Positions 27,831 to 49,013 of a DNA stretch of 64,000 nt are shown one piece after another; the first letter of the stretch is position 1, and every line of letters starts with the position of its first letter. A program made the position numbers and the translations under genes. Location: positions 11,447 to 75,446 of the forward strand of contig JAAWAR010000111.1 in the NCBI GenBank assembly GCA_022792295.1, in the 5' to 3' direction. Under the pieces are notes generated by a model. It worked only from the letters and a program-made list of their open reading frames with translations. It did no database searches and had not been told where the DNA came from. The stretch comes from Lachnospiraceae bacterium (GTDB taxonomy: Bacteria; Bacillota; Clostridia; Lachnospirales; Lachnospiraceae).

Positions 27831-29453
27831 CTACTTCGTATTATTCGCGCTGTCAACCTCACAGACCATGAGACAGGCCCCCTTGCAGGCTAGGAACCGG
27901 TCAAGTGCCCCGTCTAAGGCTTCGTTGTCGCTGCATGTAAAATAGTCCATGTCATAGGCCTCGGCGATCTTATCGTATTTTGGATAATCGTAGAGCTGGA
28001 CGCCCGAATAGTGGCTGTCATAGACCTTTTCCTGATGCTCGCGTACGAGGCCAAGAAACTCGTTTTTGACAATAAGAATCTTGACGGGAAGCCGGTTGAC
28101 CGCGATCGTTGCCAGCTCATACATGGACATCTGGAAGGCCCCGTCCCCGCAGACGGCAACTGTCTGAAGATCCGGCATACAGACCTTCGCACCGATGGCG
28201 GCCGGGATCGAATAGCCCATTGTGCCCATACCGCCCGTTGTTAAAAAGCGGCCGTTTTTCATCACATAGTTGTCTGCGGACCAGAGCTGATTCTGCCCGA
28301 CATCGGCCACGTAGATTGCATTGTCGTCCATTTTTTCCGAGAGACGCTGGACAAGAAGCATGGGGTTGACGAGCCGGTCGCTGAAGATCCGGTGATCCAC
28401 GGTGTTCCGCTTAATTTCCTCAAGGGCCGCGATCCAGTCGGAGGTATCGAGGCCGAAATCCTCGGTAAGAAGGCGCTCGAAGATGCCTTTTACGTCTCCG
28501 ACCAGGGGGAGAGTGGGACCTAAATTTTTTCCGATCTCGGCCGTGTCGATGTCGATGTGAATGATATTGACCTGGCGTTCGAGGCTTTCCGGCTTCGGGA
28601 CGGCCCGGTCTGCGATACGCGCGCCGACGATGATCAAAAGGTCGCTGGCGGCGACAGCCCGGTTGGCATAGGGCTTTCCGTTGTTGCCAAGCATGCCGAA
28701 ATAGAGGGGATGCGCTTTGGGGAGGACACCGATGCCCATCATCGTGGAGACCAGGGGAACCTGGTTTTTCTCACAAAAGCTTCGTACGCACTCCTCACTG
28801 TTGCCTAAAATCACGCCGCCGCCGACACATAACAGCGGCTTTTTTGCCTTGCGGATCGCGGCGATGACCTTATTCATCTGCTGATTGTTGCCCTTTGTAT
28901 TGGGCTTATAGCCGCGGATGTTGACTTCCTCGGGGTAAGAGAACGGTTTTTTCAGATTCGCTAACTGGACGTCGCAGGGGATGTCAATGAGCACAGGGCC
29001 CTTGCGCCCGGTGGAGGCGATGTAAAAGGCCTCTTTCATGATCTGCGTAAGCTCGTCGGCATTTTTGACGAGATAGCTGTATTTGACAAAGGATTCGGTA
29101 GAGCCGCGCATATCGGCCTCCTGGAATACATCGCGTCCGAGAAGGCTGCTATCGACCTGCCCGGTAATCGCGACGAGGGGAATGCTGTCGGCGTAGGCCG
29201 TGGCGAGGGCGGTAATGAGATTCGTCGCTCCGGGGCCCGACGAGGTGACACAGACTGCGGGTTTTCTGGATATTCTTGCGTAACCATTAGCGGCATGGCC
29301 GGCCGCCTGTTCCTGACGGACCAAGATATGTTCAATGGAATCGGAATGATAGACGGCCTCATAAAAGGGCGCGATGGCAACTCCCGGATAGCCGAAAATC
29401 CGCGTAATGCCCTCTGCTTCGAGGCATCTGACCATGGCTTGTGCACCGTTCAT
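27831..29453 (-). CDS. ilvB: Acetolactate synthase large subunit
   Basis: MNGAQ, FGYPG, SGPGATN, DVGQNQLW, GDGAFQM TPP motif. Confidence 0.95.
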   Translation of the reverse strand: MNGAQAMVRCLEAEGITRIFGYPGVAIAPFYEAVYHSDSIEHILVRQEQAAGHAANGYARISRKPAVCVTSSGPGATNLITALATAYADSIPLVAITGQVDSSLLGRDVFQEADMRGSTESFVKYSYLVKNADELTQIMKEAFYIASTGRKGPVLIDIPCDVQLANLKKPFSYPEEVNIRGYKPNTKGNNQQMNKVIAAIRKAKKPLLCVGGGVILGNSEECVRSFCEKNQVPLVSTMMGIGVLPKAHPLYFGMLGNNGKPYANRAVAASDLLIIVGARIADRAVPKPESLERQVNIIHIDIDTAEIGKNLGPTLPLVGDVKGIFERLLTEDFGLDTSDWIAALEEIKRNTVDHRIFSDRLVNPMLLVQRLSEKMDDNAIYVADVGQNQLWSADNYVMKNGRFLTTGGMGTMGYSIPAAIGAKVCMPDLQTVAVCGDGAFQMSMYELATIAVNRLPVKILIVKNEFLGLVREHQEKVYDSHYSGVQLYDYPKYDKIAEAYDMDYFTCSDNEALDGALDRFLACKGACLMVCEVDSANNTK

Positions 29454-29723
29454 TCGTGCTCCTCCTGTTTCATTAGAAATTGATATTTGGAAAAAAAGAG
29501 ATACCGATACCGTAGCATAAGATAGGAGAGTTGTCAAGCGCGTGGGTAGAGTGCTCATAATTGTAATGAAGTCGAAATTCCTCTAATATTATAAGAAATT
29601 ATCTGCTGCATTTTGGCACCCGGCCAAACCGGAGCAGATATTTACTTACAAAAGGAGCCTTCCCGGAATCTCTCTTGCATAAGGAGACTGTGTGGGGCAC
29701 GCAAAGAAGAAACGGAGGAAAAC

Positions 29724-30323
29724 ATGGAGAACAGGATTTACGGGTATATCCGCGTATCAACCAAGGAGCAGAAAGAAGACAGACAGCGGGCGGCCATGAA
29801 GGAGTTTGGCGTGCCTTCCGACTGCGTGTTTATGGACAAGCAGTCCGGCAAGGATTTCAAACGGCCAGGCTACAGGCGGCTGATGCGAATGCTCAAGCCG
29901 TCCGACACGCTGGTAATTAAAAGCATTGACCGGTTGGGCCGGAATTATGAGGAGATCCTGGCACAGTGGAGGATTATCACCAAGGAAAAGCAGGCCTCCG
30001 TCGTGGTATTGGACATGCCGCTTTTGGATACGAGAGAGGGACGGGATTTGACGGGGACATTGATCGCGGACATCGTTTTGCAGCTTCTCTCATATGTTGC
30101 ACAGACAGAACGGGACTTTATCAGACAGAGGCAGGCGGAAGGGATTGCGGCAGCCAAGGCACGCGGAGTACGCTTTGGACGGGAGGCGATGGTACGGCCG
30201 GAGCTTTATGAGAGGCTGTGCGAGGAATGGAAAAGCGGAAGGGTATCGGCGAGGAGAGCGGCCAAGATATTGGGAATTACGCATCGAACATTTTTAAAGT
30301 GGGTGCGGAAGGAGTCGTGGTAA
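29724..30323 (+). CDS. Small serine recombinase (Hin/resolvase-invertase type)
   Basis: GGAGG RBS; YGYIRVST catalytic Ser, SIDRLGR, RQRQAEGIAAAKARGVRFGR, C-terminal HTH SARRAAKILGITHRTF. Confidence 0.95.
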   Translation: MENRIYGYIRVSTKEQKEDRQRAAMKEFGVPSDCVFMDKQSGKDFKRPGYRRLMRMLKPSDTLVIKSIDRLGRNYEEILAQWRIITKEKQASVVVLDMPLLDTREGRDLTGTLIADIVLQLLSYVAQTERDFIRQRQAEGIAAAKARGVRFGREAMVRPELYERLCEEWKSGRVSARRAAKILGITHRTFLKWVRKESW

Positions 30324-30503
30324 ATATTTGATACAGCCGGAAATCATCCGTGTGTGTCCATATAAAAGGAGGGTTAAAAGGAGCCTGTAAACCGAGGAGC
30401 AAGGCCTTTTTGGAATGGGAAATATTTTACATTTTTTAACTTTTTAAACGTGTAAACGGGAAAAATATCTAGGGAACTTTGTATGCCTAGCCTGTAATAA
30501 TTT

Positions 30504-30529
30504 GGATAAAAAAGTACAGTTTGGTATCC
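30504..30529 (+). repeat. Left invertase crossover site (26 bp, hix-like)
   Basis: GGATAAAAAAGT-AC-AGTTTGGTATCC (12+2+12); 30513-30533 is a perfect 21-bp inverted repeat of 30618-30638. Confidence 0.88.
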
Positions 30530-30581
30530 GCCAGAAAAAGGTGCCCTTTTATATACCTTATAGCGCACAAACTACGTAAAT

Positions 30582-30610
30582 ATCATAGCATAATCCATCT
30601 ATGATTGCAA
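30582..30610 (-). promoter_or_regulatory. Invertible sigmaA promoter, currently facing away from tnpB and the glycan cluster (OFF)
   Basis: Minus strand TTGCAA-N17-TATGAT with extended -10 TGn, lying between the two inverted sites. Confidence 0.85.
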
Positions 30611-30621
30611 TACCCCTTGGC

Positions 30622-30647
30622 GGATACCAAACTGTACTCTGGTATCC
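30622..30647 (-). repeat. Right invertase crossover site (26 bp, hix-like)
   Basis: Plus strand GGATACCAAACT-GT-ACTCTGGTATCC; half-sites 10/12 palindromic; core inverted relative to the left site. Confidence 0.88.
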
Positions 30648-30672
30648 ATTCAGGGGTTTTTTGGAGGTACAG

Positions 30673-31863
30673 ATGGAGCGGCGCTATAATTTCCGGATTT
30701 ATCCGAATCCGGCGCAGGAAACGCAGATACAGAAGAATTTTGACTGCGTTCGTTTTGTTTATAATTATTACCTGGCAAAGCGCAGGGAGGCGTACGAGAG
30801 CGGAAGGGGGATTATCGGCTATAACGAGATGTGCCGGGACATGACGCAGCTTAAGCGGACGGCGGGGTATGAGTGGCTTCGCGAGGCGGATCATAATTCC
30901 CTGCAGCGGGCACTGAAACAGCTAGATTTAGCCTTTCAGAAGTTTTTTCGGAATGTAAAGCAGAAGGGCACGGCGCCGGGATTTCCCGTCTTTAAATCGA
31001 AAAAGAGCCTGCGTCAGTCATACACGAGTCCCGCAAGTACGCCGAAACAGTACACAGACAAACGAACGGGAAACGTACGGGAACAAAAATCAAGTGTGGC
31101 GCTGTATGAAAATTCCATTAAGCTTCCGAAGCTTGGCAGGGTAAAATGCCGTGTATCCAAAAAGGCAGAGGGGCGTATTCTCTCCGCGACGGTTTTAAGG
31201 ACGGCTGCGGGGAGATATTTTGTTTCTCTCGTCTTTACGGACTGGGGGCCGGTGCCGTTTTTGCAAACGGGGAAAGCGGCAGGAATGCAGCTTGGCATCC
31301 GAACGCTTGTGACTCTGTCGGACGGGACGGAAATCAAGAATCCCTATTTTTTAAAGAAATCCAGAAAAAAGATCCTGCGCCTGCAAAAGGAGCTGTCGCG
31401 AAAGACAAGCGGCAGCCAAAATTATGAGAAGGCCAGGAAAAGGCTGGCACGGGCATATGAGCATACCCATAACCAGAAGGCGGATATGCTTCACAAGCTG
31501 ACGACGCAGCTTGTGCGGGAATACGATGTGCTTTGTGTGCGTGACGAGCCGTTAAAGAAGATGATAAGAGAGCGTCGGTTTGCAGGACCTCTTTTGGACG
31601 CGGGATGGGGGGCACTTGTAAGCGAGCTGTCTTATAAATGTGGCTGGTATGGAAAAACACTTGTAAAAATTGACCCGCTTTATCCGAGTACAAGGCGCTG
31701 CAGCGTATGCGGCTTTGAGTATATGCCTGTATCAAGGCAAAAGAGGATAATGGAATGGAACTGTCCGAGCTGTCATACGAGGCATAAGCGCGCAGTCAAT
31801 GCGGCAGTCAATCTGTTAAAGGAAGGAATGCGTCTGGCAGAGACCGGCCGGGAGGCGTCCTGA
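30673..31863 (+). CDS. tnpB: Nuclease-dead TnpB (TldR-like RNA-guided DNA-binding protein)
   Basis: GGAGG RBS then MERRYNFRIYPN (IS605 OrfB HTH), IKLPKLG, intact CSVC/CPSC Zn ribbon; RuvC motifs read GMQLG, CVRDE, HKRAVNAA instead of GxDLG, xEDL, HDRDxNAA. Confidence 0.9.
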   Translation: MERRYNFRIYPNPAQETQIQKNFDCVRFVYNYYLAKRREAYESGRGIIGYNEMCRDMTQLKRTAGYEWLREADHNSLQRALKQLDLAFQKFFRNVKQKGTAPGFPVFKSKKSLRQSYTSPASTPKQYTDKRTGNVREQKSSVALYENSIKLPKLGRVKCRVSKKAEGRILSATVLRTAAGRYFVSLVFTDWGPVPFLQTGKAAGMQLGIRTLVTLSDGTEIKNPYFLKKSRKKILRLQKELSRKTSGSQNYEKARKRLARAYEHTHNQKADMLHKLTTQLVREYDVLCVRDEPLKKMIRERRFAGPLLDAGWGALVSELSYKCGWYGKTLVKIDPLYPSTRRCSVCGFEYMPVSRQKRIMEWNCPSCHTRHKRAVNAAVNLLKEGMRLAETGREAS

Positions 31864-31882
31864 TAGAGAAAGAATGAAAAAA

Positions 31883-32009
31883 GCGGTACGGCCGGGCAGG
31901 CCGGAACCAAAACGCCTGTGGAGAAAGTGTGCAGATACAGTAAAAAAGCGTTCAGGGAAGCAGGAATCCTGGACTTACGGGAGTGCCAAAATCCATATGA
32001 TAATAAATG
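31883..32009 (+). ncRNA. Putative omegaRNA/gRNA scaffold (about 31883-31989) plus guide (about 31990-32009)
   Basis: Immediately 3' of tnpB: cggcc-GGGCA-ggccg hairpin, aacgcctgtggag...gaagcaggaatcc, terminal hairpin tcctg/cggga, then gTGCCaa; loop GGCA is complementary to TGCC (pseudoknot). Confidence 0.7.
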
Positions 32010-32047
32010 CGGCTGGAACACCATTTCAGACCGAAAGGCGGACAGAG

Positions 32048-34567
32048 ATGGAGAGATATAGGAAAAAGGATGTATTGCAGAAAGTGGCAATATTAATAGA
32101 GGCGAATGAGGCGACCGCCGGCGGGAAGGCAGATACTGACTTAGAGGAGTCGGTCAATCAGTTAATACAATGCCAGGATACCGCTGTCCAGATTGGAACG
32201 TATCTGGAGGCAATGGGGGAAGAATGTGCTTTTCTGGTCGGGCTTCTTGAAGATTATTGTGAAAATATTTACCAGATGAGCCTAAGCCTTAACGATGCAA
32301 ACCGCCGCCGGAAGCTTGTCAAAAAGATCAGGAGACAGCTTGCACAAGTAAAAAGCGGTATTGAACTTACCATGCCGGCCGACCGGAGAGAAGTCGTATT
32401 TCTTCCATATAAGGCGAGTATGTGGGATTCATTAGAAAGCGCATGGAAAGCGCTCGATGCAGATGCGAATACGGACGCCTATGTCATCCCGATTCCCTAT
32501 TATGACAAGAATCCGGATGGCAGCTTCGGACAGGAACATTATGAAGGAGATCTGTATCCCGCCAGTGTCCCGATTACGAGGTATGATGCATACAAGATTG
32601 AGGAGCGCAGGCCGGATGCAATTTTTATACATAATCCGTATGATAACGGCAATTTTGTCACAAGCGTGCATCCGTTTTTCTATTCAAAGAACCTGAAGCA
32701 GTATACGGATGAATTGATTTATATCCCTTATTTTATTTTAGATGAAATAGACTCGGAGGATGAAAAAACAGTAGAAGTGATGAAACATTTCTGCATGGTG
32801 CCGGGGGTTTTTAACGCGGACAAAGTCATCGTACAGTCAGAAAATATAAAACGATTTTATATAAAGGCGCTTCTCAAAGCCGGGGATAGTCACAGTCCAG
32901 AGGTAAAAAGGTATTGGGAAAATAAGATCCTTGGGCTGGGATCGCCCAAAATTGACAAGGTATTGCATACAAAAAAAGAGGACCTGGAAATCCCGGAAGA
33001 ATGGGTAAAGATCATAGAAAAACCAGACAGAACCTGGAAAAAAATTATTTTCTATAATACAAGTGTCGGAGCCCTGTTAGAGCACAGGGAACGGATGATC
33101 GGCAAAATAGAGAATGTACTGCGGATCTTTAAAAGCGTGCAGGACGATGTGGCCTTACTTTGGAGGCCGCATCCTTTGACGGAGAGCACGCTTAAATCCA
33201 TGCATCCGACCCTACTTAAAAAATATGAAAGGATTGTAGAAGTTTATAAAAAGGAAAACTGGGGAATCTATGACGACACGGCGGACATGGACAGGGCCAT
33301 AGTGTTGAGCGACGCCTATTACGGGGATAACAGCAGTGTGTTGCATCTGTATAAATTAAGGAGAAAGCCTGTTTTTTTACAGAATCCGTCTATCATAGAT
33401 GAGCTGGCAGATGGCAGAACCCACAGGACGGATCCCTGTCTTCATTTTGAAAACCTGTACGACGACGGGGAATGCTTCTGGTTTACGGAGGATCGGTTTA
33501 ACGCGCTTTTTAGGATGGATAAGGACACTTGGGAAGCGGAATACATCGGCCGGTTTCCCAACGAAAAGGATACGGGGATCCGGCTTTATGCGGAAATTAT
33601 AGAGCATGGGAATAAATTGTATTTTACACCGCTTTATGCAGACGAGATCGGCGTATACGATAAAGGGAACGGGGCCTTTTCCAAAATTTCGTTTGCAGAA
33701 TTGGAGATCGGCTTTATAGAGGGCTCCGGAAGGTCGGCAAACTTTTATTCGGCGCATTTGATTGACGACTGCATGTATTTTATGCCGCACGAGAGAAATG
33801 CCGTGCTGAAGTATGATTTAAAAAACGGTGAAGTACAGGCCATATACAGCTGGGGCAGAGCGATCACGGAGAGATATGAGCTATCGGCTCCCCGGCTGGC
33901 GTTTCAAAGTATTTATGCAAACGGCTGCATTTTTGCTCCCATATCAGGCGGCAACCTTTTAGCAGTCCTTGACATAAAAACGGAAACGACAGAAATTTTG
34001 GAGATAGGCAGCAAGGAAAATACATATTTTGATGTCTGCTTATGGAAGAACCGATTGATTCTGGCACCGCTGCAGGGAAAGGAAATCATCAGTCTGCGGC
34101 TGCCGGATATGCAAACGGAGAAACTTTTTCTGGAAGAATCCAATCCCTATCAATTTTTTTCGATTATACAATGCCATGACAGGCTGTATATGTTCCCCTA
34201 TCAGTATAAGGAGATATTGGAGATTACCGTAAATGAGGAAGGGCGTATGACCTGCGGCCCCTGTAAAGTATGGAACGATACACAAAAGATGGGCTACAGG
34301 CATCCGACAGACAGCCGATACTTAAGTGTAGCCGTGTATTCCGGCCGACTGTATGCGTATGACAGCTTTGAAAAAAAGCTGATTCGTTTTACGCCGAAAA
34401 CCGGGGAATTAAGAAAAGAGGCAGTCAAAATTTGTATCAGCGCTCCTCATGGAAGGGACGTAAGGGAGGCTTTAAAGAAAGCGTATTTCAAGGCATTCGA
34501 GGAGGCTCCAATCGTGTGGGAGGCCGGCTGGAGAACCCTTGGAAGCTTTTTGGAGCTTATGACTTAG
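32048..34567 (+). CDS. CDP-glycerol glycerophosphotransferase-like (GT-B) protein with C-terminal beta-propeller-like region
   Basis: VVFLPYKASMWDSLES, IHNPYD, LGSPKID, LWRPHP, DAYYGDNSS; start moved to ATG 32048 (GAAAGG RBS) because the track's longer N-terminus overlaps the omegaRNA. Confidence 0.65.
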   Translation: MERYRKKDVLQKVAILIEANEATAGGKADTDLEESVNQLIQCQDTAVQIGTYLEAMGEECAFLVGLLEDYCENIYQMSLSLNDANRRRKLVKKIRRQLAQVKSGIELTMPADRREVVFLPYKASMWDSLESAWKALDADANTDAYVIPIPYYDKNPDGSFGQEHYEGDLYPASVPITRYDAYKIEERRPDAIFIHNPYDNGNFVTSVHPFFYSKNLKQYTDELIYIPYFILDEIDSEDEKTVEVMKHFCMVPGVFNADKVIVQSENIKRFYIKALLKAGDSHSPEVKRYWENKILGLGSPKIDKVLHTKKEDLEIPEEWVKIIEKPDRTWKKIIFYNTSVGALLEHRERMIGKIENVLRIFKSVQDDVALLWRPHPLTESTLKSMHPTLLKKYERIVEVYKKENWGIYDDTADMDRAIVLSDAYYGDNSSVLHLYKLRRKPVFLQNPSIIDELADGRTHRTDPCLHFENLYDDGECFWFTEDRFNALFRMDKDTWEAEYIGRFPNEKDTGIRLYAEIIEHGNKLYFTPLYADEIGVYDKGNGAFSKISFAELEIGFIEGSGRSANFYSAHLIDDCMYFMPHERNAVLKYDLKNGEVQAIYSWGRAITERYELSAPRLAFQSIYANGCIFAPISGGNLLAVLDIKTETTEILEIGSKENTYFDVCLWKNRLILAPLQGKEIISLRLPDMQTEKLFLEESNPYQFFSIIQCHDRLYMFPYQYKEILEITVNEEGRMTCGPCKVWNDTQKMGYRHPTDSRYLSVAVYSGRLYAYDSFEKKLIRFTPKTGELRKEAVKICISAPHGRDVREALKKAYFKAFEEAPIVWEAGWRTLGSFLELMT

Positions 34568-34593
34568 GAAAAGGAAAGGATTGGACGAGATAT

Positions 34594-35700
34594 ATGGCAA
34601 ATATAGATCAGCTGGAAAAAGAAATCAAAACACCGCTTCCCGGTGCGCCTGCAAGAGAGGAAGCCAGCACATATTATGTAGAGATTTTGTCGGAATGCAA
34701 TCTGAAATGTGTGATGTGCGGGTTTGGAAGCCGGGAGATATTTGAGAGAAAACGCGGGAAAATGGATGTTGCGCTGTTTGGGAAAATTGTAGATGAAATA
34801 GCAAAAAGAAGCCCGCATGCCACAGTCGCTCCCTACCATCACTGTGAACCGCTGCTTCATCCACAACTTTCAGAGATGGTTAAAATAATAAAGTCGCATA
34901 ATCTGTTTTGTGAGGTGTCTACAAACCTGAATGTTGCAGGGGGGCTAAAGGAACTATTGGAGGCAGGAGTAGATTCGCTTGACATTTCAGTCTCCGGCTT
35001 TTATCAGGAAACCTACGAAAAAAATCATGTTGGCGGAGACATCGAAGAAGTAAAGCGGAATTTAAAGCTTCTGCATGATTTGATAAAGCAGATGAAAACA
35101 GGCCCGCAGATTACCGTCTTTTATCATATGTATACGGATAATTTGGGAGAAGACTTTGAACGGATGAAAGAATATGTGGAGAGCCTGGGCTTTTCCTTTA
35201 GCCCTAACTGGTCGCGCTCCATATGTACGGAAATGTCACTGAAATATATAAGAGAGACCGGCTATTCCCGGTATCATGGAGAGACTCTTAAATGGTTTGA
35301 CGACATGCCTCCTCTAACAGATGCATATAAAAGCGGGATCGAGAGAATGATCTATCTCCCGCAGGATTATCTGGAAGGGAAATGGGGAGAGACCAGGCTT
35401 GACGAATGTCCGATGAATGGCAGGCTCATTAATATTCGATGGAACGGAAAACTTTCCTTATGCAGCTGTACGTTTGACGACAGGCTGTCTGTCTATGAAT
35501 ATCTGACAACTCCGATCGAACAACTGTGGGAAGCAAGGCGCAGCCATCCGGTCTGCAGAGAGTGCCTGGCAAATAATTATGCATTGTATATGAACTATTT
35601 TGATATGGATTACATAGACAAAATTGCAAGAGCCAGGCTTTCACCGGATTTGGCGTCAAACAGAAGATTTTTTGGAGATAATGGAGTGGCAGAGCTGTGA
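34594..35700 (+). CDS. Radical SAM protein with SPASM/twitch-like C-terminus
   Basis: CNLKCVMC (CxxxCxxC), EPLLHP, STN, C-terminal C...C...CREC. Confidence 0.9.
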   Translation: MANIDQLEKEIKTPLPGAPAREEASTYYVEILSECNLKCVMCGFGSREIFERKRGKMDVALFGKIVDEIAKRSPHATVAPYHHCEPLLHPQLSEMVKIIKSHNLFCEVSTNLNVAGGLKELLEAGVDSLDISVSGFYQETYEKNHVGGDIEEVKRNLKLLHDLIKQMKTGPQITVFYHMYTDNLGEDFERMKEYVESLGFSFSPNWSRSICTEMSLKYIRETGYSRYHGETLKWFDDMPPLTDAYKSGIERMIYLPQDYLEGKWGETRLDECPMNGRLINIRWNGKLSLCSCTFDDRLSVYEYLTTPIEQLWEARRSHPVCRECLANNYALYMNYFDMDYIDKIARARLSPDLASNRRFFGDNGVAEL

Positions 35701-37304
35701 GGAAATGTGAAAGATGGCCGGAGGAGAATGGCATAAAATTTTCCGTTTTGATCCCGACGAGAGACAGACTGGATCTATTAAAAACGGCTGTGGCCAGTGT
35801 ACAGAACCAAACATATGAGAATTGGGAACTGGTTATCGTGGATAATTGCAGCGAGGAGGACGTGGGCGGCTATGCGGCCTCTCTTGCAGACAGCCGGATT
35901 GTTTTTTATAGGCAGTCGGAAGCGGTGAGCGTTACGAAAAACTGGAATACGGCGAACGGCCTGGCGTCGGGGGATTACAGGATTATGCTGGGAGACGACG
36001 ACGCGCTGCTGCCTAAGGCGCTGGAAATCCTTGCAGAACGGATTTCGCGCCACGGACATCCGGAGATCGTAAGCTTTATGGCATATGAGTATTTGCAGCC
36101 GCATGTCGATCCCCAAAACAGGGAGGGAAATGTAGCGTTAAGCGTCCCGTTTCTTTTGGATGACAATACGGAAGAAATGTATCTGTCCATGGACTGGAGA
36201 AGAAGGAGCATCGAAGCCTGCTTTTCCTTTGAGAAGGTACTTGGGTACAATATGCAGTTTTACTGCTATAGCAGAAAACTGGTGCAGCGTCTGGAGCGCT
36301 ATGGCGCCTTTTATGAGCCGCCTTATCCGGATTATTATACGACGAGCATGGCGATGCTTCTGGCAGAAACGTTTTTATACATTCCCGAGGTTATCACGGT
36401 AATCGGAGTGACTCCGAAATCCTATGGCTGTTATTACAGGAACAACAACGAAAAGGAGGGCATGAAGTTCCACAAAGAGGAGAACTTCCGCTCTTTTGCG
36501 CCGCTGTCCGTGAGAGAAATGTTATGCAGTGTAGATGAAATGGATACGGCGGCATTTGCGACGTTTGCGTTGGCGGCAAAAAGGCTGAAGGGGCCGTATC
36601 CGAGCCTAAAGGGATATTATAAAGCAGTGCTTAAAAGAGAGGCTCTGTATCGGACCGTAGAGGAGCTTCGTTTTCTGACAGACCAGGAAATGGCGGCTCA
36701 CATAACGGAAGCGGAAAAGAGGGAGCTGTATGCCTATGCACAAGAACTTAAAAATACGAGGAAAGGCGCTCCGGCAGCCAATCCAGAAAAGCCGATTTGC
36801 TTTGCATCGTTAAACGGCCTTCTAAAAAACGTGGAGGGGGTCGAAAAGGCACTGCTTGAGCGCAGTGACAGGCAGTATGGAGACATTGACGAATGGCTTA
36901 AAGCAGAGGGGCTGGAGATAATAACCGCTAATTATGCGGGAAGAAGCATACGAGTGTGGGGCGCATATCCGAGAGGAATATACCTGAAACAGAAATTGCG
37001 AAAAGCCGGATTTTTGGTGAATGGGTGTATAGACCGAATGGCGCTCGAGAAAAATTTTGCAGAAAAAACCTTTGCAGAGAACACGGTCCTATCTCCCAAA
37101 CAGGCCCTTAGCAGAAACAGAGAAGAATATATTGTGATTCCTCTGCTGAGCCGGCACGCAGAGATACTCGAATGGCTGAAGCAAGGGGAGTACGAACCGG
37201 AGAAGGATTTTTTGTATATGGGCGTGTCCGGCGGGAAACCAGAGGGAGAGATGAATGGAAAGGCTTTGCATTTTACAAGTATACCCACAGGGGAGAGGGA
37301 TTGA
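35697..37304 (+). CDS. Glycosyltransferase family 2
   Basis: FSVLIPTRDR, QTYENWELVIVDNCS, LGDDD. Confidence 0.9.
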   Translation: MRKCERWPEENGIKFSVLIPTRDRLDLLKTAVASVQNQTYENWELVIVDNCSEEDVGGYAASLADSRIVFYRQSEAVSVTKNWNTANGLASGDYRIMLGDDDALLPKALEILAERISRHGHPEIVSFMAYEYLQPHVDPQNREGNVALSVPFLLDDNTEEMYLSMDWRRRSIEACFSFEKVLGYNMQFYCYSRKLVQRLERYGAFYEPPYPDYYTTSMAMLLAETFLYIPEVITVIGVTPKSYGCYYRNNNEKEGMKFHKEENFRSFAPLSVREMLCSVDEMDTAAFATFALAAKRLKGPYPSLKGYYKAVLKREALYRTVEELRFLTDQEMAAHITEAEKRELYAYAQELKNTRKGAPAANPEKPICFASLNGLLKNVEGVEKALLERSDRQYGDIDEWLKAEGLEIITANYAGRSIRVWGAYPRGIYLKQKLRKAGFLVNGCIDRMALEKNFAEKTFAENTVLSPKQALSRNREEYIVIPLLSRHAEILEWLKQGEYEPEKDFLYMGVSGGKPEGEMNGKALHFTSIPTGERD

Positions 37305-39216
37305 AGCATACCTTTATTATCTGGCTGAAAAATTGCAGGAAATTTCTGCTTTTATGGTGGTTGCCGCAAACGGCGGGGTAAAGGACTGCGACAGGCAGCG
37401 CTTAAAAGAAATGCATTTGAACCTGTATGAGCGCCCGGACGCCGGATTTGACTGCGGGGCGTTTAAGGACACGCTGGAAAGGTACATAACATGGGAAGGC
37501 GTACAGGAATATGACGAATTGATTTTAGTAAATGATTCCTGCTATGGACCGCTTTTCCCCCTCGATGAAATGTTTCATAAAATGGACAAAGAAAAGGCTT
37601 CCCTGGATTTTTGGACGATTACTGAGCAGCAGCCGTTTAAAAAGGGACCATACTGTGAGGAAAAGATACCGTATCATATACAGCCGTATTTTGCAGTCAT
37701 CCGAAAAAAACTGCTGCATAGCCCGGATTTTTCTGATTTTTGGAAGGGCTTAACCGTACCGGAGAATTATTGGGAGGCGGTTGAGAACTATGAATTGAAA
37801 TTTGCCGCATTTTTTGCGGCGCGGGGCTATACGTGCGGAGCCTATGTGGATTCTGCCAGGTTTTGCAAGAGCGATACGGAGTGGTTTGCCTATGTTATGT
37901 TTGATATATTTCGTCTGATTTCCGAGTGCAGATGCCCGTTTGTCAAGAGAAAGGCGTTCAAATATATACAGGAAACGATATATAAATTAAACGCCGGTGA
38001 AACGGTGCGGAAGACTTTGGATTATATCCAAACGCATACCGCTTATCCGGCCGAGCTGATTTGGGAGGATCTGATCCATGACCTGCCGCCCAAAGCCCTG
38101 CATTTGGCGCTTCATTTAGACTATATGGTTCCTTCACACGATCGGACAGAGGGACACCAGGACGGTTTAAAGCGGAAGCTGTTCGTGTATGTCCGGGATA
38201 TAGACTTTGCAGAAGCATGCCTGAAACGGATCAATACCCTGCCTCCGAACACAGATGCTTATATGTATGCCGAAGGGCCTGCCATTAAAAAAATTTTTAA
38301 CGGCAGTACGCATGCAAAGCTTTGGAACCGGATTGATTCATGGGAGCAGACAGAAGAAATACATGCCGGCGAGTCGGATTATCTGTGTCTCATAATAGAC
38401 GACACAGCCACAAAAAAATTTTTTTATCATGCGGCAAAGCTTTCCTATATAGAAAGCGTATGGGAAAATATGTGGTTGGATCCTTCCTACGTTGAAAATG
38501 TGGTTTTTATTTTTGAAAAAGAAAAGAAATTAGGGCTTTTAACGCCTCCGGAGCCTTATTTTTCGATTTTCTTTACCTCCTGCTTTGCGTCTAAACCGTC
38601 TTCGGATGAAACTTTTACGACCAATCACGCGTTTTGGATTCGAACGGCAGCGATTCGGGAGCGTCTGTCCGGGCGTATAGAAAAAGAGTGGCTGTTTCCT
38701 TTGGCAGACACGTTATCCAAAGCCGTAAGGCGGTCCGGATTTTACAGCGGAATTTTGATGGAGGAACACTGGACATCCGTGTTTACGGCGAATTACCGTT
38801 ATATGCTGGAAGGGCTGACAAAACATATAGCGGGGGATGTCTTGTGCAACGGAGAATATGCGGAGATCATTTCCGTCAATCCCGAAATCTATCATTTTTG
38901 TCATGTATACAAAAAAATATATATCTACGGCGCCGGAAAGTTCGGGCATCACTGCCTGAACTATCTGAGTCAGAACGAAATCGAGTTTAAGGGGTTTGTC
39001 GTATCGGACGGGCAAAAGGAAAAAAACCATGGCATACAGCCGGTCTATGGGCTGAGTGAGATTGCGCTTGGCCCGGATGAGGGAATTATAGTCGGAGTCG
39101 GAAAAGAATATCTGGCAGAGGTCGAAAATGAATTGAAGAAAAGAAAAATCAGCCGTTTTGTCAGATGCGTAGACTGGGATGCGCAGATTGAGGAAAAGGC
39201 AAAAAACTATACATGA
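37255..39216 (+). CDS. Rhamnan synthesis F (RgpF) family protein
   Basis: GFDCGAF, LVNDSCYGP, DFWTIT, HIQPYF, YELKF, CPFVKRK. Confidence 0.85.
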   Translation: MERLCILQVYPQGRGIEAYLYYLAEKLQEISAFMVVAANGGVKDCDRQRLKEMHLNLYERPDAGFDCGAFKDTLERYITWEGVQEYDELILVNDSCYGPLFPLDEMFHKMDKEKASLDFWTITEQQPFKKGPYCEEKIPYHIQPYFAVIRKKLLHSPDFSDFWKGLTVPENYWEAVENYELKFAAFFAARGYTCGAYVDSARFCKSDTEWFAYVMFDIFRLISECRCPFVKRKAFKYIQETIYKLNAGETVRKTLDYIQTHTAYPAELIWEDLIHDLPPKALHLALHLDYMVPSHDRTEGHQDGLKRKLFVYVRDIDFAEACLKRINTLPPNTDAYMYAEGPAIKKIFNGSTHAKLWNRIDSWEQTEEIHAGESDYLCLIIDDTATKKFFYHAAKLSYIESVWENMWLDPSYVENVVFIFEKEKKLGLLTPPEPYFSIFFTSCFASKPSSDETFTTNHAFWIRTAAIRERLSGRIEKEWLFPLADTLSKAVRRSGFYSGILMEEHWTSVFTANYRYMLEGLTKHIAGDVLCNGEYAEIISVNPEIYHFCHVYKKIYIYGAGKFGHHCLNYLSQNEIEFKGFVVSDGQKEKNHGIQPVYGLSEIALGPDEGIIVGVGKEYLAEVENELKKRKISRFVRCVDWDAQIEEKAKNYT

Positions 39217-39246
39217 AACATGCATAGTTGTCTGGGAGAATGAAAC

Positions 39247-41313
39247 ATGAAGCGGATAGCAGTATTTACTGTATATGACAAGGATGGCGTTTTATATGCA
39301 TATCGCCGGCATATCCTGAAGGAATTGAGGGCCGTGGCTGACCGGGTAATCGTCGTATGCAACGGCCCAATGGAGCCGGGCAGCAAAAAGGCTCTGTATG
39401 AAATGGCAGATGAAGTTTTTTTCAGGACCAACAGCGGCTATGACGCGTTCGCCTACAAATATGCCCTGGAAGAAGCAGTCGGGTGGGCCAAACTGGAACA
39501 GTATGACGAGCTGCTGTTAATGAACGATTCATTTTACGGCCCGTTTTGGCTGATGGCAGACATTCTGGAAGAAATGGCAGAAAGGGACGCCGATTTTTGG
39601 GGGCTCACCGCACAGCCGCCGATGGCGAACACGTTTGGCAGCGCGTATTTTTACAGGGAGCTTCCCTACCACATTCAGACCTATTTTCTTGTAGTCAGGG
39701 ACAGGCTGCTGCATGCCCCTGCCTTTTGCAGATTTTGGGATACATTAGAGCCTGTAAACGGATTTACGGATGCGGTTACGAAATTTGAACTGCGGTTTAC
39801 TGCGTTTTTTCAGAAGGAAGGATTTTTGGCCGCCTCCTACGTCGATTGCGCCTGCATGGAACAGGAAAAAACGGAAAACAGGCTTCCGTATATTATGTAT
39901 GAGCCCTATGAGATGATAAAAGAGCATCATTGTCCCATTTTAAAAAGAAAATGTTTTACAATGCCTTATTCGGATATTCTGCAGTATTCGGTCGGACAGG
40001 ATGCCAAACGGGCACTGGAATTCATTTCCAGGCATACGGACTATGACGAGGGAATGATATGGGAACACCTTATACGGACCGTTGAGCCGGGAAAGCTGCA
40101 GCAGGCCCTGCATCTTAGCTTTATTCTGCCTTCTGCATACACCTCAAAAAAAGACAGGAGCAAAACACATAAGACGGCTGTGATCGCGCATGTTAACTAT
40201 CCGGAATTATTGGAAGAATGCTTTGCCTATCTGTGCCGGGTTCCTGCAAGGATCGATCTGTACATAACGACAAAATCCCTGGACATCAAAAAGAAGCTGG
40301 AAGAAAAATTTTATTCGCGCGGCCGCCTGAATGTTAAGGTGCGTATGATCGGGGACCGCGGCAGGGAGATCAGGGGGATGCTCATCGAGTGCGCGGATGT
40401 GTTTCGCGAGTACGAATATGTAGGCTATGTGCACGATAAACGAACGGCAGGAAATGCAGGGGAGGCCAAAATCGGAGAAATATACCGTTCTTTGCTGTGG
40501 GATAACATGTTGAAAAGCAGCGCATATATCAACAACGCCCTGGCTTTGCTGGAAGAAAACACGCATATCGGCCTGTTGGCGCCTCCGGAGCCATACCATG
40601 GAAACTATTTCCGGTATCTGGGGCAGGAATGGACGCAGAACTACCAAACGACGTGTGAATTAGCGTCCCGGCTGAAACTGCAATGTGTTCTGGAGGAAGA
40701 CTGTCCTCCGTTTGTACTGGGAACAACCTTCTGGTGCAAAAGCCGGGCGCTGGCTCCGTTAATCGACTTTGGATTTTCGGAGAACGATTTTGAAGAAGAA
40801 CCGCTGGGTCTGGATGGGACGATCAATCACGCTATAGAGAGAATTTTTCAATATGCGGCGCAAAGCCAGGGCTACGCGTCGGGAATCGTGATGAATGACG
40901 CCTTTGCATCCGACTATTTTGAAGATTATCACTGTATGCTGAACGGAGTCCTTTCGGAATTCAGAAAGACAGAAAAGTACTGTACACTTCGGGAGTGCAT
41001 GGAGTTTGGTGATACAGAGGCGCTGAAGGAATTTTGCGGCAGGTATAAAAGCGTGTATGTATATGGAACGGGAAGCTATGCCGCTATTTTGACAGATATT
41101 TTGCGTAATCTTAAAGTGGACTGGCAGGGATACGTTGTATCAGAAGGGCACAGGACAAAGAACCGCTGGAAGGGCAGGCCGGTCTGCCTGCTGTCTGAAA
41201 TAGAGAAGGAACGCAGAGAGGTCGGGTTGATTCTTGCACTTGACAAAATCCATCAGGCTGAAGTGCTTCCTGCATTGAGAGAAAAGGATTTTACAAACAT
41301 TTATAGAGTGTGA
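39247..41313 (+). CDS. Rhamnan synthesis F (RgpF) family protein
   Basis: NSGYDAFAY, MNDSFYGP, DFWGLT, HIQTYF, RGRE, HDKR, HAIER. Confidence 0.88.
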   Translation: MKRIAVFTVYDKDGVLYAYRRHILKELRAVADRVIVVCNGPMEPGSKKALYEMADEVFFRTNSGYDAFAYKYALEEAVGWAKLEQYDELLLMNDSFYGPFWLMADILEEMAERDADFWGLTAQPPMANTFGSAYFYRELPYHIQTYFLVVRDRLLHAPAFCRFWDTLEPVNGFTDAVTKFELRFTAFFQKEGFLAASYVDCACMEQEKTENRLPYIMYEPYEMIKEHHCPILKRKCFTMPYSDILQYSVGQDAKRALEFISRHTDYDEGMIWEHLIRTVEPGKLQQALHLSFILPSAYTSKKDRSKTHKTAVIAHVNYPELLEECFAYLCRVPARIDLYITTKSLDIKKKLEEKFYSRGRLNVKVRMIGDRGREIRGMLIECADVFREYEYVGYVHDKRTAGNAGEAKIGEIYRSLLWDNMLKSSAYINNALALLEENTHIGLLAPPEPYHGNYFRYLGQEWTQNYQTTCELASRLKLQCVLEEDCPPFVLGTTFWCKSRALAPLIDFGFSENDFEEEPLGLDGTINHAIERIFQYAAQSQGYASGIVMNDAFASDYFEDYHCMLNGVLSEFRKTEKYCTLRECMEFGDTEALKEFCGRYKSVYVYGTGSYAAILTDILRNLKVDWQGYVVSEGHRTKNRWKGRPVCLLSEIEKERREVGLILALDKIHQAEVLPALREKDFTNIYRV

Positions 41314-42590
41314 GCGGGGGGAGAGGCAAAATGCGGGCAGTTGAGGATACCGGCAGAATTTCGGAATATGTATGTTCTGCTTCGATCCATATGGCTTCTG
41401 AGGAGATTTTGACAGAAAATACGGCGCTCATCGTACATTTGTATTACGAGAGGCTGTTTGGGGAATGTATTTCATATTTGTGCGAGGTTCCTGAAGAAAT
41501 AGACGTTTATATCACCACAACATCGGAAGAAAAAAGGAAACAAATAGAAAAGATATGTCTGGAAAAGAAGGCGGCGTACCAAGAGATCCGAGTGGTCAAA
41601 AACAGAGGGCGCGAGCTTAGCGCATTATTTACTGCATGTGCGGATGTCTGGAAAAGCTATGCCTATCTGTGTTTTGTACATGACAAGGCTACGTCGGGGA
41701 ATGCGGGTCCCAAGAAAATCGGGGAAACCTACATGTTTCTGCTGTGGGAAAATTTGCTGAAAAATAAAATTTATATACGGAACCTTTGGTATTTTTTAAA
41801 GACGCATGAAAAGACAGGCCTGCTTGTGCCGCCTGTGCCGTATCACGACGGTTATTTCTCGAACTATGGAAACGAATGGACATCCTGTTATGAAAAAACG
41901 GGGGAGCTGGCAAAAAGACTGGGAATTACGAAGGAAATCTCCAAGGAATCCCCTCCGCCCGCCCTGGGGAGTGCCTTTTGGTGTAAGACAAAGGCGATGA
42001 AAACGCTCTGTGAGGCGAACCTTTCCTATGAGGAGTTTGATCCGGAACCGATGAAGACGGACAATACGATCAGCCATGCGATCGAACGAATCCTTCCTTA
42101 TGCGGCAGAACACGACGGCTATGAAACGGCGGCTGTGATGAACGACGAGTTTGCGTCGATTCAGGCGTCCAATTATCATTTTATGCTGAACAGCCTGGTG
42201 AAAAGAAAAACAAAGAATACTTGTTTTGCCACATACAGAGATTTAACGCAGCATGAGAATTATTTGAACTGCAGCAAGGCTGCGAAGTTTTTCGAAGCGT
42301 GCAGACCGAGATACGTGTACGGAACCGGCTTCTTTTCGGGCGAGGTAAGCCGATACCTGCAAAAACAGGGGATCCAATATGACGGTTATGTGGTATCTGA
42401 CGGCTACAGCCATCCGGAAACCTTCTGGGGAAAGCCCGTCATGAGCCTGTCATCTGTGCAGCCGGGAGAAAAGACGGGAATTGTTGTCGCTGTCAACATG
42501 AAAAACACACAAGAGATCGCATCGATCTTAAAGGAACGCGGATTTCATCATGTATATTTCAATCAAGCGGATGAGGGGATAAACGATTGA
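41310..42590 (+). CDS. RgpF-family protein (second RgpF domain only)
   Basis: VHLYY, NRGRE, FVHDK, GSAFWC, HAIERILP. Confidence 0.85.
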   Translation: MSGGRGKMRAVEDTGRISEYVCSASIHMASEEILTENTALIVHLYYERLFGECISYLCEVPEEIDVYITTTSEEKRKQIEKICLEKKAAYQEIRVVKNRGRELSALFTACADVWKSYAYLCFVHDKATSGNAGPKKIGETYMFLLWENLLKNKIYIRNLWYFLKTHEKTGLLVPPVPYHDGYFSNYGNEWTSCYEKTGELAKRLGITKEISKESPPPALGSAFWCKTKAMKTLCEANLSYEEFDPEPMKTDNTISHAIERILPYAAEHDGYETAAVMNDEFASIQASNYHFMLNSLVKRKTKNTCFATYRDLTQHENYLNCSKAAKFFEACRPRYVYGTGFFSGEVSRYLQKQGIQYDGYVVSDGYSHPETFWGKPVMSLSSVQPGEKTGIVVAVNMKNTQEIASILKERGFHHVYFNQADEGIND

Positions 42591-44419
42591 GAAATAATCT
42601 GGCGATCTATGCTACCTATGATAAAAACGGAAAAATTGACGACTATATTCTTTACTGTCTGCATGAACTGAGGAAGGTGGCAGATGATATAGCGGTCGTA
42701 AGCAATGCAAAACTTCCCCGAAAGGAGAAGGATAAGCTTTCCATGGTTCGCTATCTGTATGAACGGGAGGATACCGGATATGATGCGGGCGGATTCGCGT
42801 ACGCACTTGACAGGCTGCGGGGAGAAGGCCGGCTGGAAACGTATGATGCGGTTCTGTTTATGAATGATTCCGTATTCGGACCGTTTTATCCGTTTCAGGA
42901 GATGTTTGAGACGATGGAAAAAAGAGAGGACTTGGATTTTTGGGGAATCACCAAAAGAGGAGTCTCAGACTTTGACGGAGGCGATGCGGTCTATCCGGAA
43001 CATATCCAGCTGTATTTTTATGTGGTGCGAAAGAGGATGCTGCAAAGCGCCGATTTTACAGAGTATTGGACGACGCTCCCCCAAAAGCTGACGGATTTTA
43101 GGAGTGCGATTCTAAAGTACGAGTTTTTGTTTACAAAATATTTTGCAGACCGGGGCTTTCGATGGGATGTTTATTGCAAAACGGACGGATATGTGACAGA
43201 GAATCCTCACTTAAATATAAGCCCGTACCATTACTGCAGTTATGAGCTTGTAAAAGAGGCAAGATGCCCTCTGCTGAAAAGAAGGCTCTTTACGGGAGAC
43301 TTTGTGGAAGGAAGATTCAGCGACCGGTCGGATTTAAGGAAAGCCGTGTCTTACCTGGCGGATAATACGGCTTATGACATGGATCTGATATGGTCGCACA
43401 TCCTGCGGACTTATCCGCTGGGAGCCGTGATGGAGAGCATGCAGATGTACGAGCTGTTAGACACGCCTGCCGGCGCCTCTTTGCCGCAGCGCCTTCCGGT
43501 TCGGGTAATCGATCTGTTCGGGAACGTACTGCAAAATGCGGGTCTGGCTGTAAACGGCTTTTTTCCTGCCGAATATACACTGTTTATAGCCATAGAGGAA
43601 AACGGCACAATCCCCAGGGCATTGCTTGATGCACAGAAACACTGTATTCTTCAGAATTTAGTCAACGATGAAGCCTATCTTTTGGGCGTTTGCGAGCTGT
43701 TTGCAGGAAATCCCAGACTGGGTATGCTGATTCCGCCTGCGAATGTGTTCGGGAAGCTGAGCGGTTCGCTTGAAAAAAGATGGAAAAGGGAAGATCTCGC
43801 GGTAAAAATTCGGGATGCCTATCATTTGACCGTTCCGTTTGGCACATGTGCGCCCACGCATGATTTTTATGCGTTCTGGTGCAGAAGCAGTGTGCTTGAC
43901 GCCCCTCTTTTGGAAGCTTTAAAGGCAGACCGAACGGGGACCATGATGCAGATGATGCCGTTATTTGCCCAACAAAAGGGCTATTATACGGAGGTATTGG
44001 TAGGCAGAGCGTATGTGGTGGGCCTGCTGGCCAATATGCAGCGCACGATGTATGAGTTTTTTCACATGCAGGGATATGCATTGGCAGAGGATAAAGACAT
44101 AGAGGAGCTGAAAGAGGAGGCCTACAAAAGGCAGATTGCCGGATTTATTGGGAAGAAGGACAAAGTGTATGTCTACGGAGCCGGTCAGCTTGCATGCAGG
44201 GTGATCCGCATCCTGGAGGGAATGAGAAAGCCAAGCGGCATTGTCGTCAGCGACAAAAACGGAAATGCAGAAACCATATGCGGATATCCGGTGAAAGGAA
44301 TCGAGGAAGCAAATCTGCAGGGCTGCATCCTAATCCTTGCAGTCGGAGAAAAAAATAACACGGCTGTGGAGGAAAGGCTTAAGAAACTAGGAATCACGGA
44401 CTATCTGACGCTTGTGTAG
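42587..44419 (+). CDS. Rhamnan synthesis F (RgpF) family protein
   Basis: GYDAGGF, MNDSVFGP, DFWGIT, HIQLYF, CPLLKRR. Confidence 0.85.
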   Translation: MRNNLAIYATYDKNGKIDDYILYCLHELRKVADDIAVVSNAKLPRKEKDKLSMVRYLYEREDTGYDAGGFAYALDRLRGEGRLETYDAVLFMNDSVFGPFYPFQEMFETMEKREDLDFWGITKRGVSDFDGGDAVYPEHIQLYFYVVRKRMLQSADFTEYWTTLPQKLTDFRSAILKYEFLFTKYFADRGFRWDVYCKTDGYVTENPHLNISPYHYCSYELVKEARCPLLKRRLFTGDFVEGRFSDRSDLRKAVSYLADNTAYDMDLIWSHILRTYPLGAVMESMQMYELLDTPAGASLPQRLPVRVIDLFGNVLQNAGLAVNGFFPAEYTLFIAIEENGTIPRALLDAQKHCILQNLVNDEAYLLGVCELFAGNPRLGMLIPPANVFGKLSGSLEKRWKREDLAVKIRDAYHLTVPFGTCAPTHDFYAFWCRSSVLDAPLLEALKADRTGTMMQMMPLFAQQKGYYTEVLVGRAYVVGLLANMQRTMYEFFHMQGYALAEDKDIEELKEEAYKRQIAGFIGKKDKVYVYGAGQLACRVIRILEGMRKPSGIVVSDKNGNAETICGYPVKGIEEANLQGCILILAVGEKNNTAVEERLKKLGITDYLTLV

Positions 44420-44453
44420 GGCGGATTGACGAGAGCATGAAGGGGAACGGATT

Positions 44454-44987
44454 ATGGTTTTTAACAAATTAAAAATTGAAGGTGCCTTTTTGATCTGCCG
44501 TCAGCCCAATCAGGATGAACGCGGATATTTTTCAAGACTCTATTGTGAAAACGAGTTTCACGAAGCCGGGATCCGAATGGATCTCAGGCAGATGAATCTG
44601 TGTGAAAACAGAGAAAAAGGGACGCTGCGGGGGCTGCACTTTCAGAAGGGAGAGTATGCGGAGGATAAAGTGGTTTCGTGTACGCGGGGGTGCATTTACG
44701 ATGTGTGTGTAGATGTAAGGCCTGACTCGCCGACGTATCAAAGCTATTGCGCCTATGAGCTGTCGGAGGAGAATGGAAGGATGCTCTATATCCCAAAGGG
44801 CTGCGCGCACGGTTACGTCACACTGACAGAAAACTGTCAGCTTTTGTACCTGATGTCTCAGTTTTATGCCCCCGGCCATGACGGGGGATACCGGTATGAC
44901 GATCCGGCGTTCCAGATAGACTGGCCGGTAAAGACGGGGCTGATTCTTTCAAAAAAGGACAGGGAGTTGCCGTGGATCGGCAGCTGA
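44454..44987 (+). CDS. rfbC: NDP-4-keto-6-deoxyhexose 3,5-epimerase (RmlC/RfbC family)
   Basis: DERGYF, GTLRGLHFQ, DVRPDSPTY, IPKGCAHGY, IDWP. Confidence 0.92.
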   Translation: MVFNKLKIEGAFLICRQPNQDERGYFSRLYCENEFHEAGIRMDLRQMNLCENREKGTLRGLHFQKGEYAEDKVVSCTRGCIYDVCVDVRPDSPTYQSYCAYELSEENGRMLYIPKGCAHGYVTLTENCQLLYLMSQFYAPGHDGGYRYDDPAFQIDWPVKTGLILSKKDRELPWIGS

Positions 44988-45027
44988 AAAATAATAAGAA
45001 AATAAAAAAGGTGAGGAATCAAACAGT

Positions 45028-48282: not shown

Positions 48283-48291
48283 ATGAAATGC

Positions 48292-48320
48292 TTGTATAAA
48301 TTGGTTGAATCCTGTACAAT
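48292..48320 (+). promoter_or_regulatory. Internal sigmaA-like promoter for the CDP-alditol module
   Basis: TTGTAT-N17-TACAAT in the gap between GT32 and the epimerase. Confidence 0.5.
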
Positions 48321-48345
48321 GGAGATACGTTCTGGAGGAAAGGGT

Positions 48346-49008: not shown

Positions 49009-49013
49009 ACGGT

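Follow-up and report, generated by a model that had tools for sequence, protein, structure and literature searches.

A TnpB-derived, nuclease-dead candidate RNA-guided repressor at the head of a phase-variable glycan operon in Lachnospiraceae

INTRODUCTION

What does an RNA-guided nuclease of transposon origin do for its host once its catalytic residues are gone, its reading frame is kept, and its gene lies between an invertible promoter and a long series of sugar-modifying genes? This question is raised by tldR, an open reading frame at 30673–31863 (+) of the 64,000-nucleotide stretch of Lachnospiraceae DNA analyzed here, hereafter the window. An earlier note, made from the letters of this DNA, had described a TnpB in which all three RuvC catalytic residues are replaced, and had taken this to indicate domestication rather than decay. 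Nuclease-dead, RNA-guided DNA-binding repressors of the TldR type are a recently recognized class of natural CRISPRi-like regulators, of which the fliC-, csrA-, and oppF-associated clades have been characterized (PMC13622181). Measured against these clades, the window locus is best read as representing a new TldR clade of independent origin, which would impose exclusive expression on phase-variable glycan loci. We consider it probable that the protein and an adjacent guide RNA form a repressor of this type, which would silence a rival glycan locus when its own operon is switched on.

A NUCLEASE-DEAD TnpB HOMOLOGUE UNDER SELECTION

The tldR frame runs from the ATG at 30673 to the TGA ending at 31863, with GGAGG 7 nt upstream of the start, and encodes 396 amino acids in which Pfam recognizes the HTH_OrfB_IS605, OrfB_IS605, and Cas12f1-like_TNB domains. 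In a search of solved structures, ISDra2 TnpB (8bf8/8exa/8h1j) aligned with the product end to end (phmmer E 6e-75). The alignment places Q206 at D191 (GMQLG vs GVDVG), R290 at E278 (CVRDE vs GTEHL), and A374 at D361 (HKRAVNAA vs HDRDENAA), and so bears out the claimed loss of the entire triad. The four zinc-ribbon cysteines (C343, C346, C364, and C367) do not vary across the clade; together with the ribosome-binding site and the Pfam domains, they uphold the description of a 396-residue frame that retains its N-terminal HTH and zinc ribbon. Shifted acidic residues, namely D291 and E292, were considered as a means of restoring the active site and were ruled out: D291 corresponds to the ordinary, non-catalytic Asp found after the catalytic Glu of active proteins (IEDL), E292 varies within the clade, and no shifted acidic triad exists. 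The top PDB match of an AlphaFold2 model of the product (pLDDT 88.7) is the ISDra2 TnpB ternary complex (TM 0.81/0.88), and the fold is complete in this model. Such a protein would be expected to bind DNA without cleaving it.

The gene also lacks signs of mobility, and thereby differs from active IS200/IS605 tnpB genes in more than its missing D/E/D triad. It is the only TnpB homologue in the 81%-complete, 2.8 Mb genome, and the same assembly yielded no Y1 tnpA (PF01797), in line with the earlier observation that none was evident nearby. No insertion-sequence left end is present at tldR; an inverton occupies its position, as had been proposed.

The loss of the triad extends well beyond the window. 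Of the 120 protein clusters closest to the window protein, 50 have retained D/E/D and 69 are without the triad, while a single isolated NDY variant groups with the active proteins; the clade, as drawn from these best 120 homologue clusters, therefore comprises at least 69. Its replacements are mostly His or Gln, Arg or Lys, and Ala or Gly at the three positions (HRA in 26 clusters, HRG in 15, HKG in 7, and QRA in 4), with Arg or Lys at the Glu position in 66 of 69. In an IQ-TREE phylogeny with the catalytic columns masked, the dead, glycan-associated proteins are monophyletic (UFBoot 95), and their sister group consists of active Clostridia TnpBs with 46–49% identity. A class-wide sample of 399 Clostridia genomes added no further members, and a family-wide sample of 300 genomes added only one (G191); among 50%-identity representatives the clade collapses, and a search of those was uninformative.

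A sister genome of the same genus (G301, GCA_022792875.1) carries two tldR modules, whose proteins are 82% and 69% identical to that of the window. Against its G301 orthologue tldR has a dN/dS of 0.13 at a dS of 0.78, and comparisons against or between paralogues give 0.11 and 0.155, the dS of the comparisons ranging from 0.8 to 2.1; the adjacent TagF-like gene has a closely similar value (0.127). Judged by these ratios, tldR is under purifying selection, and the triad has been lost across a clade under selection. Synteny with G301 spans pyruvate kinase, acetolactate synthase, the invertase, tldR, the TagF-like gene, radical SAM, GT2, and RgpF. The clade-wide substitutions, the low dN/dS against the orthologue, and this synteny, along with the retained guide-RNA scaffold and the exact genomic target described below, all support domestication as opposed to decay.

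Further truncation has occurred in parts of the family. Some clade members, among them L041 (G191:C4, 5378–6376) and L102, are C-terminally shortened to 329–332 residues with loss of the zinc ribbon; they still have the scaffold and stand at the head of glycan operons, and in this they resemble truncated proteins known from other TldR clades. A different truncated TnpB-like protein of 337 residues, without the TNB domain, is encoded on the minus strand of L042 (G245:C12, 8789–9802), immediately ahead of the genes for the substrate-binding protein and permease of an ABC transporter. As it nests among active TnpBs in the tree, it is probably the product of another, more recent domestication or of decay.

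A COVARYING GUIDE-RNA SCAFFOLD

The next gene truly begins at ATG 32048, and the 184 nt that separate it from the tldR stop are non-coding, since their alignment to G301 contains frame-breaking indels. Within them, 31884–31989 (+) forms an omegaRNA-type scaffold of four stems and a GGCA/UGCC pseudoknot that ends in GUGCCAA, and 31990–32006 (+) is the 17-nt guide, AATCCATATGATAATAA. The boundary between the two, with GTGCCAA ending at 31989 and the guide beginning at 31990, was set by alignment with the right ends of multi-copy active insertion sequences (six copies in G235 and four in G618). The scaffold is conserved and covaries: in an alignment of nine clade sequences, 96% of cells are paired and 14 of 23 pairs, the pseudoknot included, show compensatory changes. 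None of 500 shuffles was as good, and slid controls paired at 27–43%. The pseudoknot itself illustrates the covariation, its loop GGCA with a 3′ UGCC being replaced in L006 by GACA with UGUC.

An Rfam scan of 29400–32400 returned no omegaRNA family, only chance matches. Two other candidates from this region were discarded. The GC-rich 17-nt match of 31881–31897 to contigs C127 and C35 reflects ordinary intergenic hairpins and not RNA relics, and an inverted repeat pairing 29598–29619 with 31983–32004, which resembles the scaffold end and guide, is a chance similarity that is not conserved in G301.

A PROMOTER THAT INVERTS IN NATURE

Upstream of tldR, 29724–30323 (+) encodes a serine invertase of 199 residues, a Hin/Gin-type resolvase with a C-terminal HTH (Pfam Resolvase E 4e-31, with weak HTH matches), which is conserved in G301 at a dN/dS of 0.05. 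It is followed by an inverton with a 31-nt left repeat (30503–30533), 90% complementary to the right repeat (30618–30648), and an inner segment of 84 nt (30534–30617). A consensus scan places in this segment, on the minus strand (30582–30610), a sigma-70-type promoter, TTGCAA-17-TATGAT with TG. In the orientation of the window, the promoter is OFF for tldR; inversion would move it to 30541–30569 (+), reading into the gene. The left repeat in particular is conserved at both G301 TldR loci, and both modules of that genome have the inverton repeats and the promoter (loci 1 and 2), the invertase being found only at locus 1.

Public assemblies of the same species capture both states. L077 (GCA_949552345.1) starts inside the segment, of which it holds the exact reverse complement joined to the right repeat, while L075, L076, and the window have the opposite orientation; the contig of L078 breaks 27 nt upstream of the tldR ATG. 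Because both orientations occur, the 118-bp inverton flips in nature, which substantiates and extends the earlier proposal of an invertible switch in place of the left end.

Additional features of the switch deserve mention. The spacer of the promoter (window 30587–30605) contains CAT and, directly after it, the 7 nt with which the guide of the same locus begins. This 7-mer is AATCCAT in the window genome (G000) and at G301 locus 1, and AATCCGT at G301 locus 2 (invertons L051 and L052), the A/G difference covarying; CAT also constitutes the last three bases flanking the real targets. Such a partial match may be an autoregulatory site, which we suggest with little confidence from the sequence. 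A terminator-like hairpin with a T-run at 30637–30655, upstream of the tldR ribosome-binding site, overlaps the outer half of the right repeat and could damp read-through into tldR. At G301 locus 1, a 134-aa gene with a Spo0A_C domain (L001:9213–9617, minus strand) is situated between invertase and inverton, in the path of the OFF-orientation promoter, so that this switch may toggle between two outputs; a counterpart is missing from 30324–30500 of the window.

GLYCAN OPERONS AS THE SHARED GENOMIC CONTEXT

The first enzyme gene downstream of the guide RNA, at 32048–34567 (+), encodes an 839-aa TagF-like (CDP-glycerol glycerophosphotransferase-like) protein, assigned from a weak Pfam Glyphos_transf match and from atlas neighbors at 0.98, which are Glyphos_transf-like clusters. 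By gene content, the co-oriented glycan operon continues through 34432–50804 (+) with genes for radical SAM, GT2, four RgpF, RmlC, a C-methyltransferase, an epimerase, a DXD glycosyltransferase, Rpe, and TarI-like and TarJ-like proteins; up to 50804, neither an exporter nor a priming transferase was seen. A flagellin gene is absent beside this operon, and neither csrA nor fliC was found near tldR in the window or in the other clade loci examined.

The association recurs across the clade: in 9 of the 11 contexts examined, a clade member leads a co-oriented glycan operon. Such operons follow in the window, G301 loci 1 and 2, L004, L006, L008, L009/10, L041 (G191), L065, and L067, and the exceptions are L066, where the genes downstream are unassigned, and L064, where the contig stops. 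On the upstream side stand a serine invertase, a tyrosine recombinase, or an XRE regulator with a small ORF. As read from these gene neighborhoods, the clade has the specific association with non-transposon genes that is one criterion for TldRs.

CANDIDATE GUIDE TARGETS AT OTHER GLYCAN LOCI

Outside its own position, the guide occurs once more in the window genome, at 6128–6144 (+) of contig C129, where it matches 17/17 from its first base. From base composition about 3e-4 such matches would be expected; in the actual genome about 1% of 17-mers are present more than once, most of them in repeats. The C129 site lies on the sense strand, 589 nt into a gene for a 448-aa TagF-like protein of which the TagF-like protein of the window is a paralogue (47.5% identical), and is preceded by TACAT. 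Around it, C129 carries flagellin, two GT2, the TagF-like target, two NKWYS/PglD-N/sulfotransferase-like, CysD-like, and CysNC-like genes, and another GT2. This gene content suggests a flagellin-glycosylation island, the link to flagellin being adjacency, and flagellin may be the acceptor of the glycan. The homologous site in the window's own TagF-like gene, TACAT followed by AATCCGTATGATAACG at 32633–32648 (+), differs from the guide at 3 of 16 positions, one of them seed position 6, and is predicted to be spared.

A similar pattern emerges in G301. Guide 2 of this genome (AATCCGTATGATAATAA), with G at position 6, has a 17/17 match in the locus 1 TagF-like gene, and guide 1 (AATCCATATGATAATC), with A at position 6, has 15/16 matches in those of loci 3 and 4, the mismatch being position 16 at both putative targets. 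As guide 2 with its G fits locus 1, and guide 1 with its A fits loci 3 and 4, the base at guide position 6 tracks the target locus. No guide matches its own locus: there are 2–3 mismatches, with position 6 always among them. Like C129, loci 3 and 4 sit immediately behind flagellin genes; the orthologue of C129 is locus 3. Of the two features expected of a TldR target, complementarity to the guide and a flanking TAM, the former is represented by one 17/17 match in G000 and by one 17/17 and two 15/16 matches in G301, exact matches and covarying substitutions being observed directly.

Several comparisons bear on these matches. When guides were compared with genes, all close matches (0–2 mismatches) fell on the sense strand, and the best antisense matches had 4–7 mismatches; for the three guides of the genus, shuffled versions did as well as the observed match in none of 200 trials. 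The target genes of C129 and its orthologue L053 share 79% nucleotide identity (dS 0.96), and the TAM side and target fall within a 33-nt run of identity, among the three longest in the gene. Four sites in these two related genomes suggest T(A/T)CAT as the TAM, whereas the nearest active relative has TTGAT; of the three own-locus sites expected to be spared, two are likewise preceded by TACAT.

The guides of more distant clade members resemble other Pro-Tyr motifs of TagF-like genes, and have near matches (1–2 mismatches) or none in the incomplete metagenome-assembled genomes (MAGs) or single contigs searched. In the 68%-complete G191, no target was found beyond the guide itself. The Gracilibacteraceae and Family XIII MAGs have 1–2-mismatch sites or none, two 1-mismatch sites of the Gracilibacteraceae MAG falling in TagF-like paralogues. 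The L006 and L009 guides had no match among the genes compared.

A MODEL OF GUIDE-DIRECTED EXCLUSION

Taken as a working mechanism, TldR and the guide RNA would head a phase-variable glycan operon as its first two products. The serine invertase would flip the 84-nt promoter segment to ON, giving a single transcript of tldR, the guide RNA, and some 19 kb of sugar-modifying genes. The TldR–guide complex would pair with the template strand inside the C129 TagF-like gene, where the TAM side of the site (TACAT) faces the oncoming RNA polymerase, and the bound complex would block elongation into this gene and all genes downstream. The cell would then make the switched-on glycan in place of the resident C129 glycan, while the own-locus paralogue would escape through its seed mismatches. 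Guide-directed shut-off of the C129 locus upon switching on of the own locus is, from the sequence matches, the most likely function. In G301 the same logic would yield a hierarchy, with TldR2 blocking locus 1 and TldR1 blocking loci 3 and 4, so that locus 2 would rank over locus 1, and locus 1 over loci 3 and 4.

Among the points that count against repression is that the C129 target sits deep in the operon and not at its promoter. Published TldRs repress from sites within transcribed regions if their TAM-proximal end points toward the promoter (10.1101/2023.11.30.569447), and a roadblock mechanism is also discussed elsewhere (PMC13622181); a roadblock at C129 would be of this kind.

A wider proposal, which we advance tentatively and stop just short of favoring, is that this TnpB-derived family of RNA-guided repressors constitutes a programmable mutual-exclusion hierarchy among the phase-variable glycan loci of gut Clostridia, here flagellin-glycosylation islands. 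Every invertible operon would open with a TldR, whose guide would roadblock the first conserved enzyme gene of its rivals, synonymous codon differences would decide which loci are silenced, and the 7-nt seed with CAT in the own promoter would provide autoregulation.

With this locus, the known TldRs gain a clade that evolved independently and whose putative regulon is a different one, the biosynthesis of glycans or flagellin glycans; it also offers concrete candidate native targets in two genomes. If the model is true, surface-glycan phase variation in gut Firmicutes includes an RNA-programmed exclusion between loci in trans, comparable in effect to that of Bacteroides UpxZ; intragenic roadblocking would be a natural mode of action, and single synonymous changes would separate self from rival. 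A compact yet full-length dead effector of 396 residues with a 16–17-nt guide is also of interest for tool development.

ALTERNATIVE EXPLANATIONS

The alternative that survives best concerns the regulon. The protein may be an RNA-guided regulator whose targets are cell-wall or capsule polysaccharide loci generally, as opposed to flagellin glycosylation. Operons led by other clade members do contain ABC exporter, pyruvyl transferase, or heptose genes, and the window operon itself contains RgpF and TarIJ-like genes; all three target loci of the genus, however, lie directly behind flagellin genes and are without exporters. We therefore think this reading unlikely, while according it real weight.

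A second possibility is that the guide–target identity is a fossil. An ancestral TnpB element would have inserted after TACAT in a TagF-like gene, leaving 17 nt as a remnant of the flank, and the protein would have been kept for another role, such as regulation of its own promoter or inversion or processing of the operon transcript. The guide of a TnpB element is by construction the DNA flanking its right end, all clade guides resemble codon-phased Pro-Tyr motifs of TagF-like genes, and the own promoter spacer holds CAT and the first seven guide nucleotides with an A/G that covaries between loci. The guide could have originated as the flank of such an insertion, and the fossil may explain where it came from. 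Matches that are exact, specific to a locus, and covarying at such divergence are left unexplained by it: homology stops exactly at the guide ends with no gene remnant flanking it, a neutral 17-mer would not stay exact at a dS of about 0.8–1 between species and about 50% protein identity within the clade, and G301 holds two paralogous modules with different guides, each matching another locus and mismatched to its own. As an account of the present function, a fossil is improbable.

More improbable still is that the protein remains a nuclease or nickase by way of other residues, with targeting of the rival locus leading to cleavage or recombination instead of repression. The zinc ribbon and RuvC fold are kept, but no conserved acidic residue substitutes at any of the three positions, the Glu position is Arg or Lys in nearly the whole clade (66 of the 69 dead clusters), and in two species a guide and its exact self-target persist stably side by side. 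Finally, a decaying, non-functional IS200/IS605 remnant whose frame is open by chance would account for the three lost catalytic residues and the missing tnpA and left end, but is effectively refuted by a dN/dS of 0.11–0.16, substitutions kept across at least 69 clusters, synteny and a consistent tie to glycan operons, a covarying guide RNA, and an intact predicted fold.

COMPARISON WITH KNOWN SYSTEMS

The closest precedent for the proposed exclusion system is provided by the csrA-associated TldRs of Oscillibacter and Flavonifractor (Nat Microbiol 2026, PMC13418256). In both, a chromosomal nuclease-dead TnpB has its guide RNA next to it and is immediately preceded by a hin-type invertase and an inverton of roughly 120 bp; targets fall within ORFs of paralogous genes (fliC in the csrA-associated systems), several loci of a genome cross-target, and there is a link to flagella. 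There are also differences. There, tldR is within 3 kb of csrA and/or fliC, neither of which adjoins it here; the associated and targeted genes are flagellin there and glycan enzymes (TagF-like) here; and the promoter is FliA-dependent there and sigma-A-like here. In our analysis the csrA-associated clade was represented by one member, from the F. plautii csrA-tldR-fliC locus, which has the triad K/R/E in place of Q/R/A. This protein is only 29% identical to that of the window and falls outside many active TnpB lineages, which separate the two in the tree; the present clade is therefore an independent domestication, and the independent inactivation that the earlier note had wished to see checked by phylogeny is what the tree returns. 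The csrA-linked TldR of F. plautii ATCC 29863 (L162, 8114–9283, minus strand) also has Arg at the Glu position, in a CVRG motif that resembles the CVRD/G of the present clade despite the low identity, and the Arg may be a convergent substitution. No TnpB was found near the housekeeping csrA of an Oscillibacter MAG.

The other TldR clades share the principle more than the arrangement. In the fliC-associated TldRs of Enterobacteriaceae prophages (Wiegand et al.; 10.1101/2023.11.30.569447), a repressor with a guide of about 16 nt is likewise encoded beside a replacement gene and silences the resident paralogue. Those systems are carried by phages, act on a promoter, lack an inverton, and often have a truncated C terminus, in contrast to the intragenic target and full-length protein seen here. 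The oppF-associated TldRs of Enterococcus (PMC13622181) are also domesticated TnpBs that repress a paralogue of neighboring genes, with the E. faecalis target downstream of the transcription start site, but they have a 9–11-nt guide, a TTTAA TAM, and an ABC-transporter context, and are not phase variable. In the literature searched, we found no paper that ties a TldR or TnpB to glycan loci.

With ISDra2 TnpB and the nearest active Clostridia TnpBs (46–49% identity), the window system shares its fold (TM 0.81), zinc ribbon, pseudoknotted omegaRNA architecture, and a guide that starts directly after the right end. Those elements have the D/E/D triad and a TTGAT TAM and are multi-copy and mobile, whereas here the triad is lost and the gene is single-copy and syntenic. 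A parallel in the protein world is found in the capsule loci of Bacteroides, which have promoter invertons and UpxY/UpxZ as first genes, UpxZ being a protein inhibitor of antitermination. By analogy, in both systems the first gene of a flip-switched glycan operon would silence competing glycan loci in trans; unlike that of UpxZ, the specificity here would come from a 16–17-nt RNA guide.
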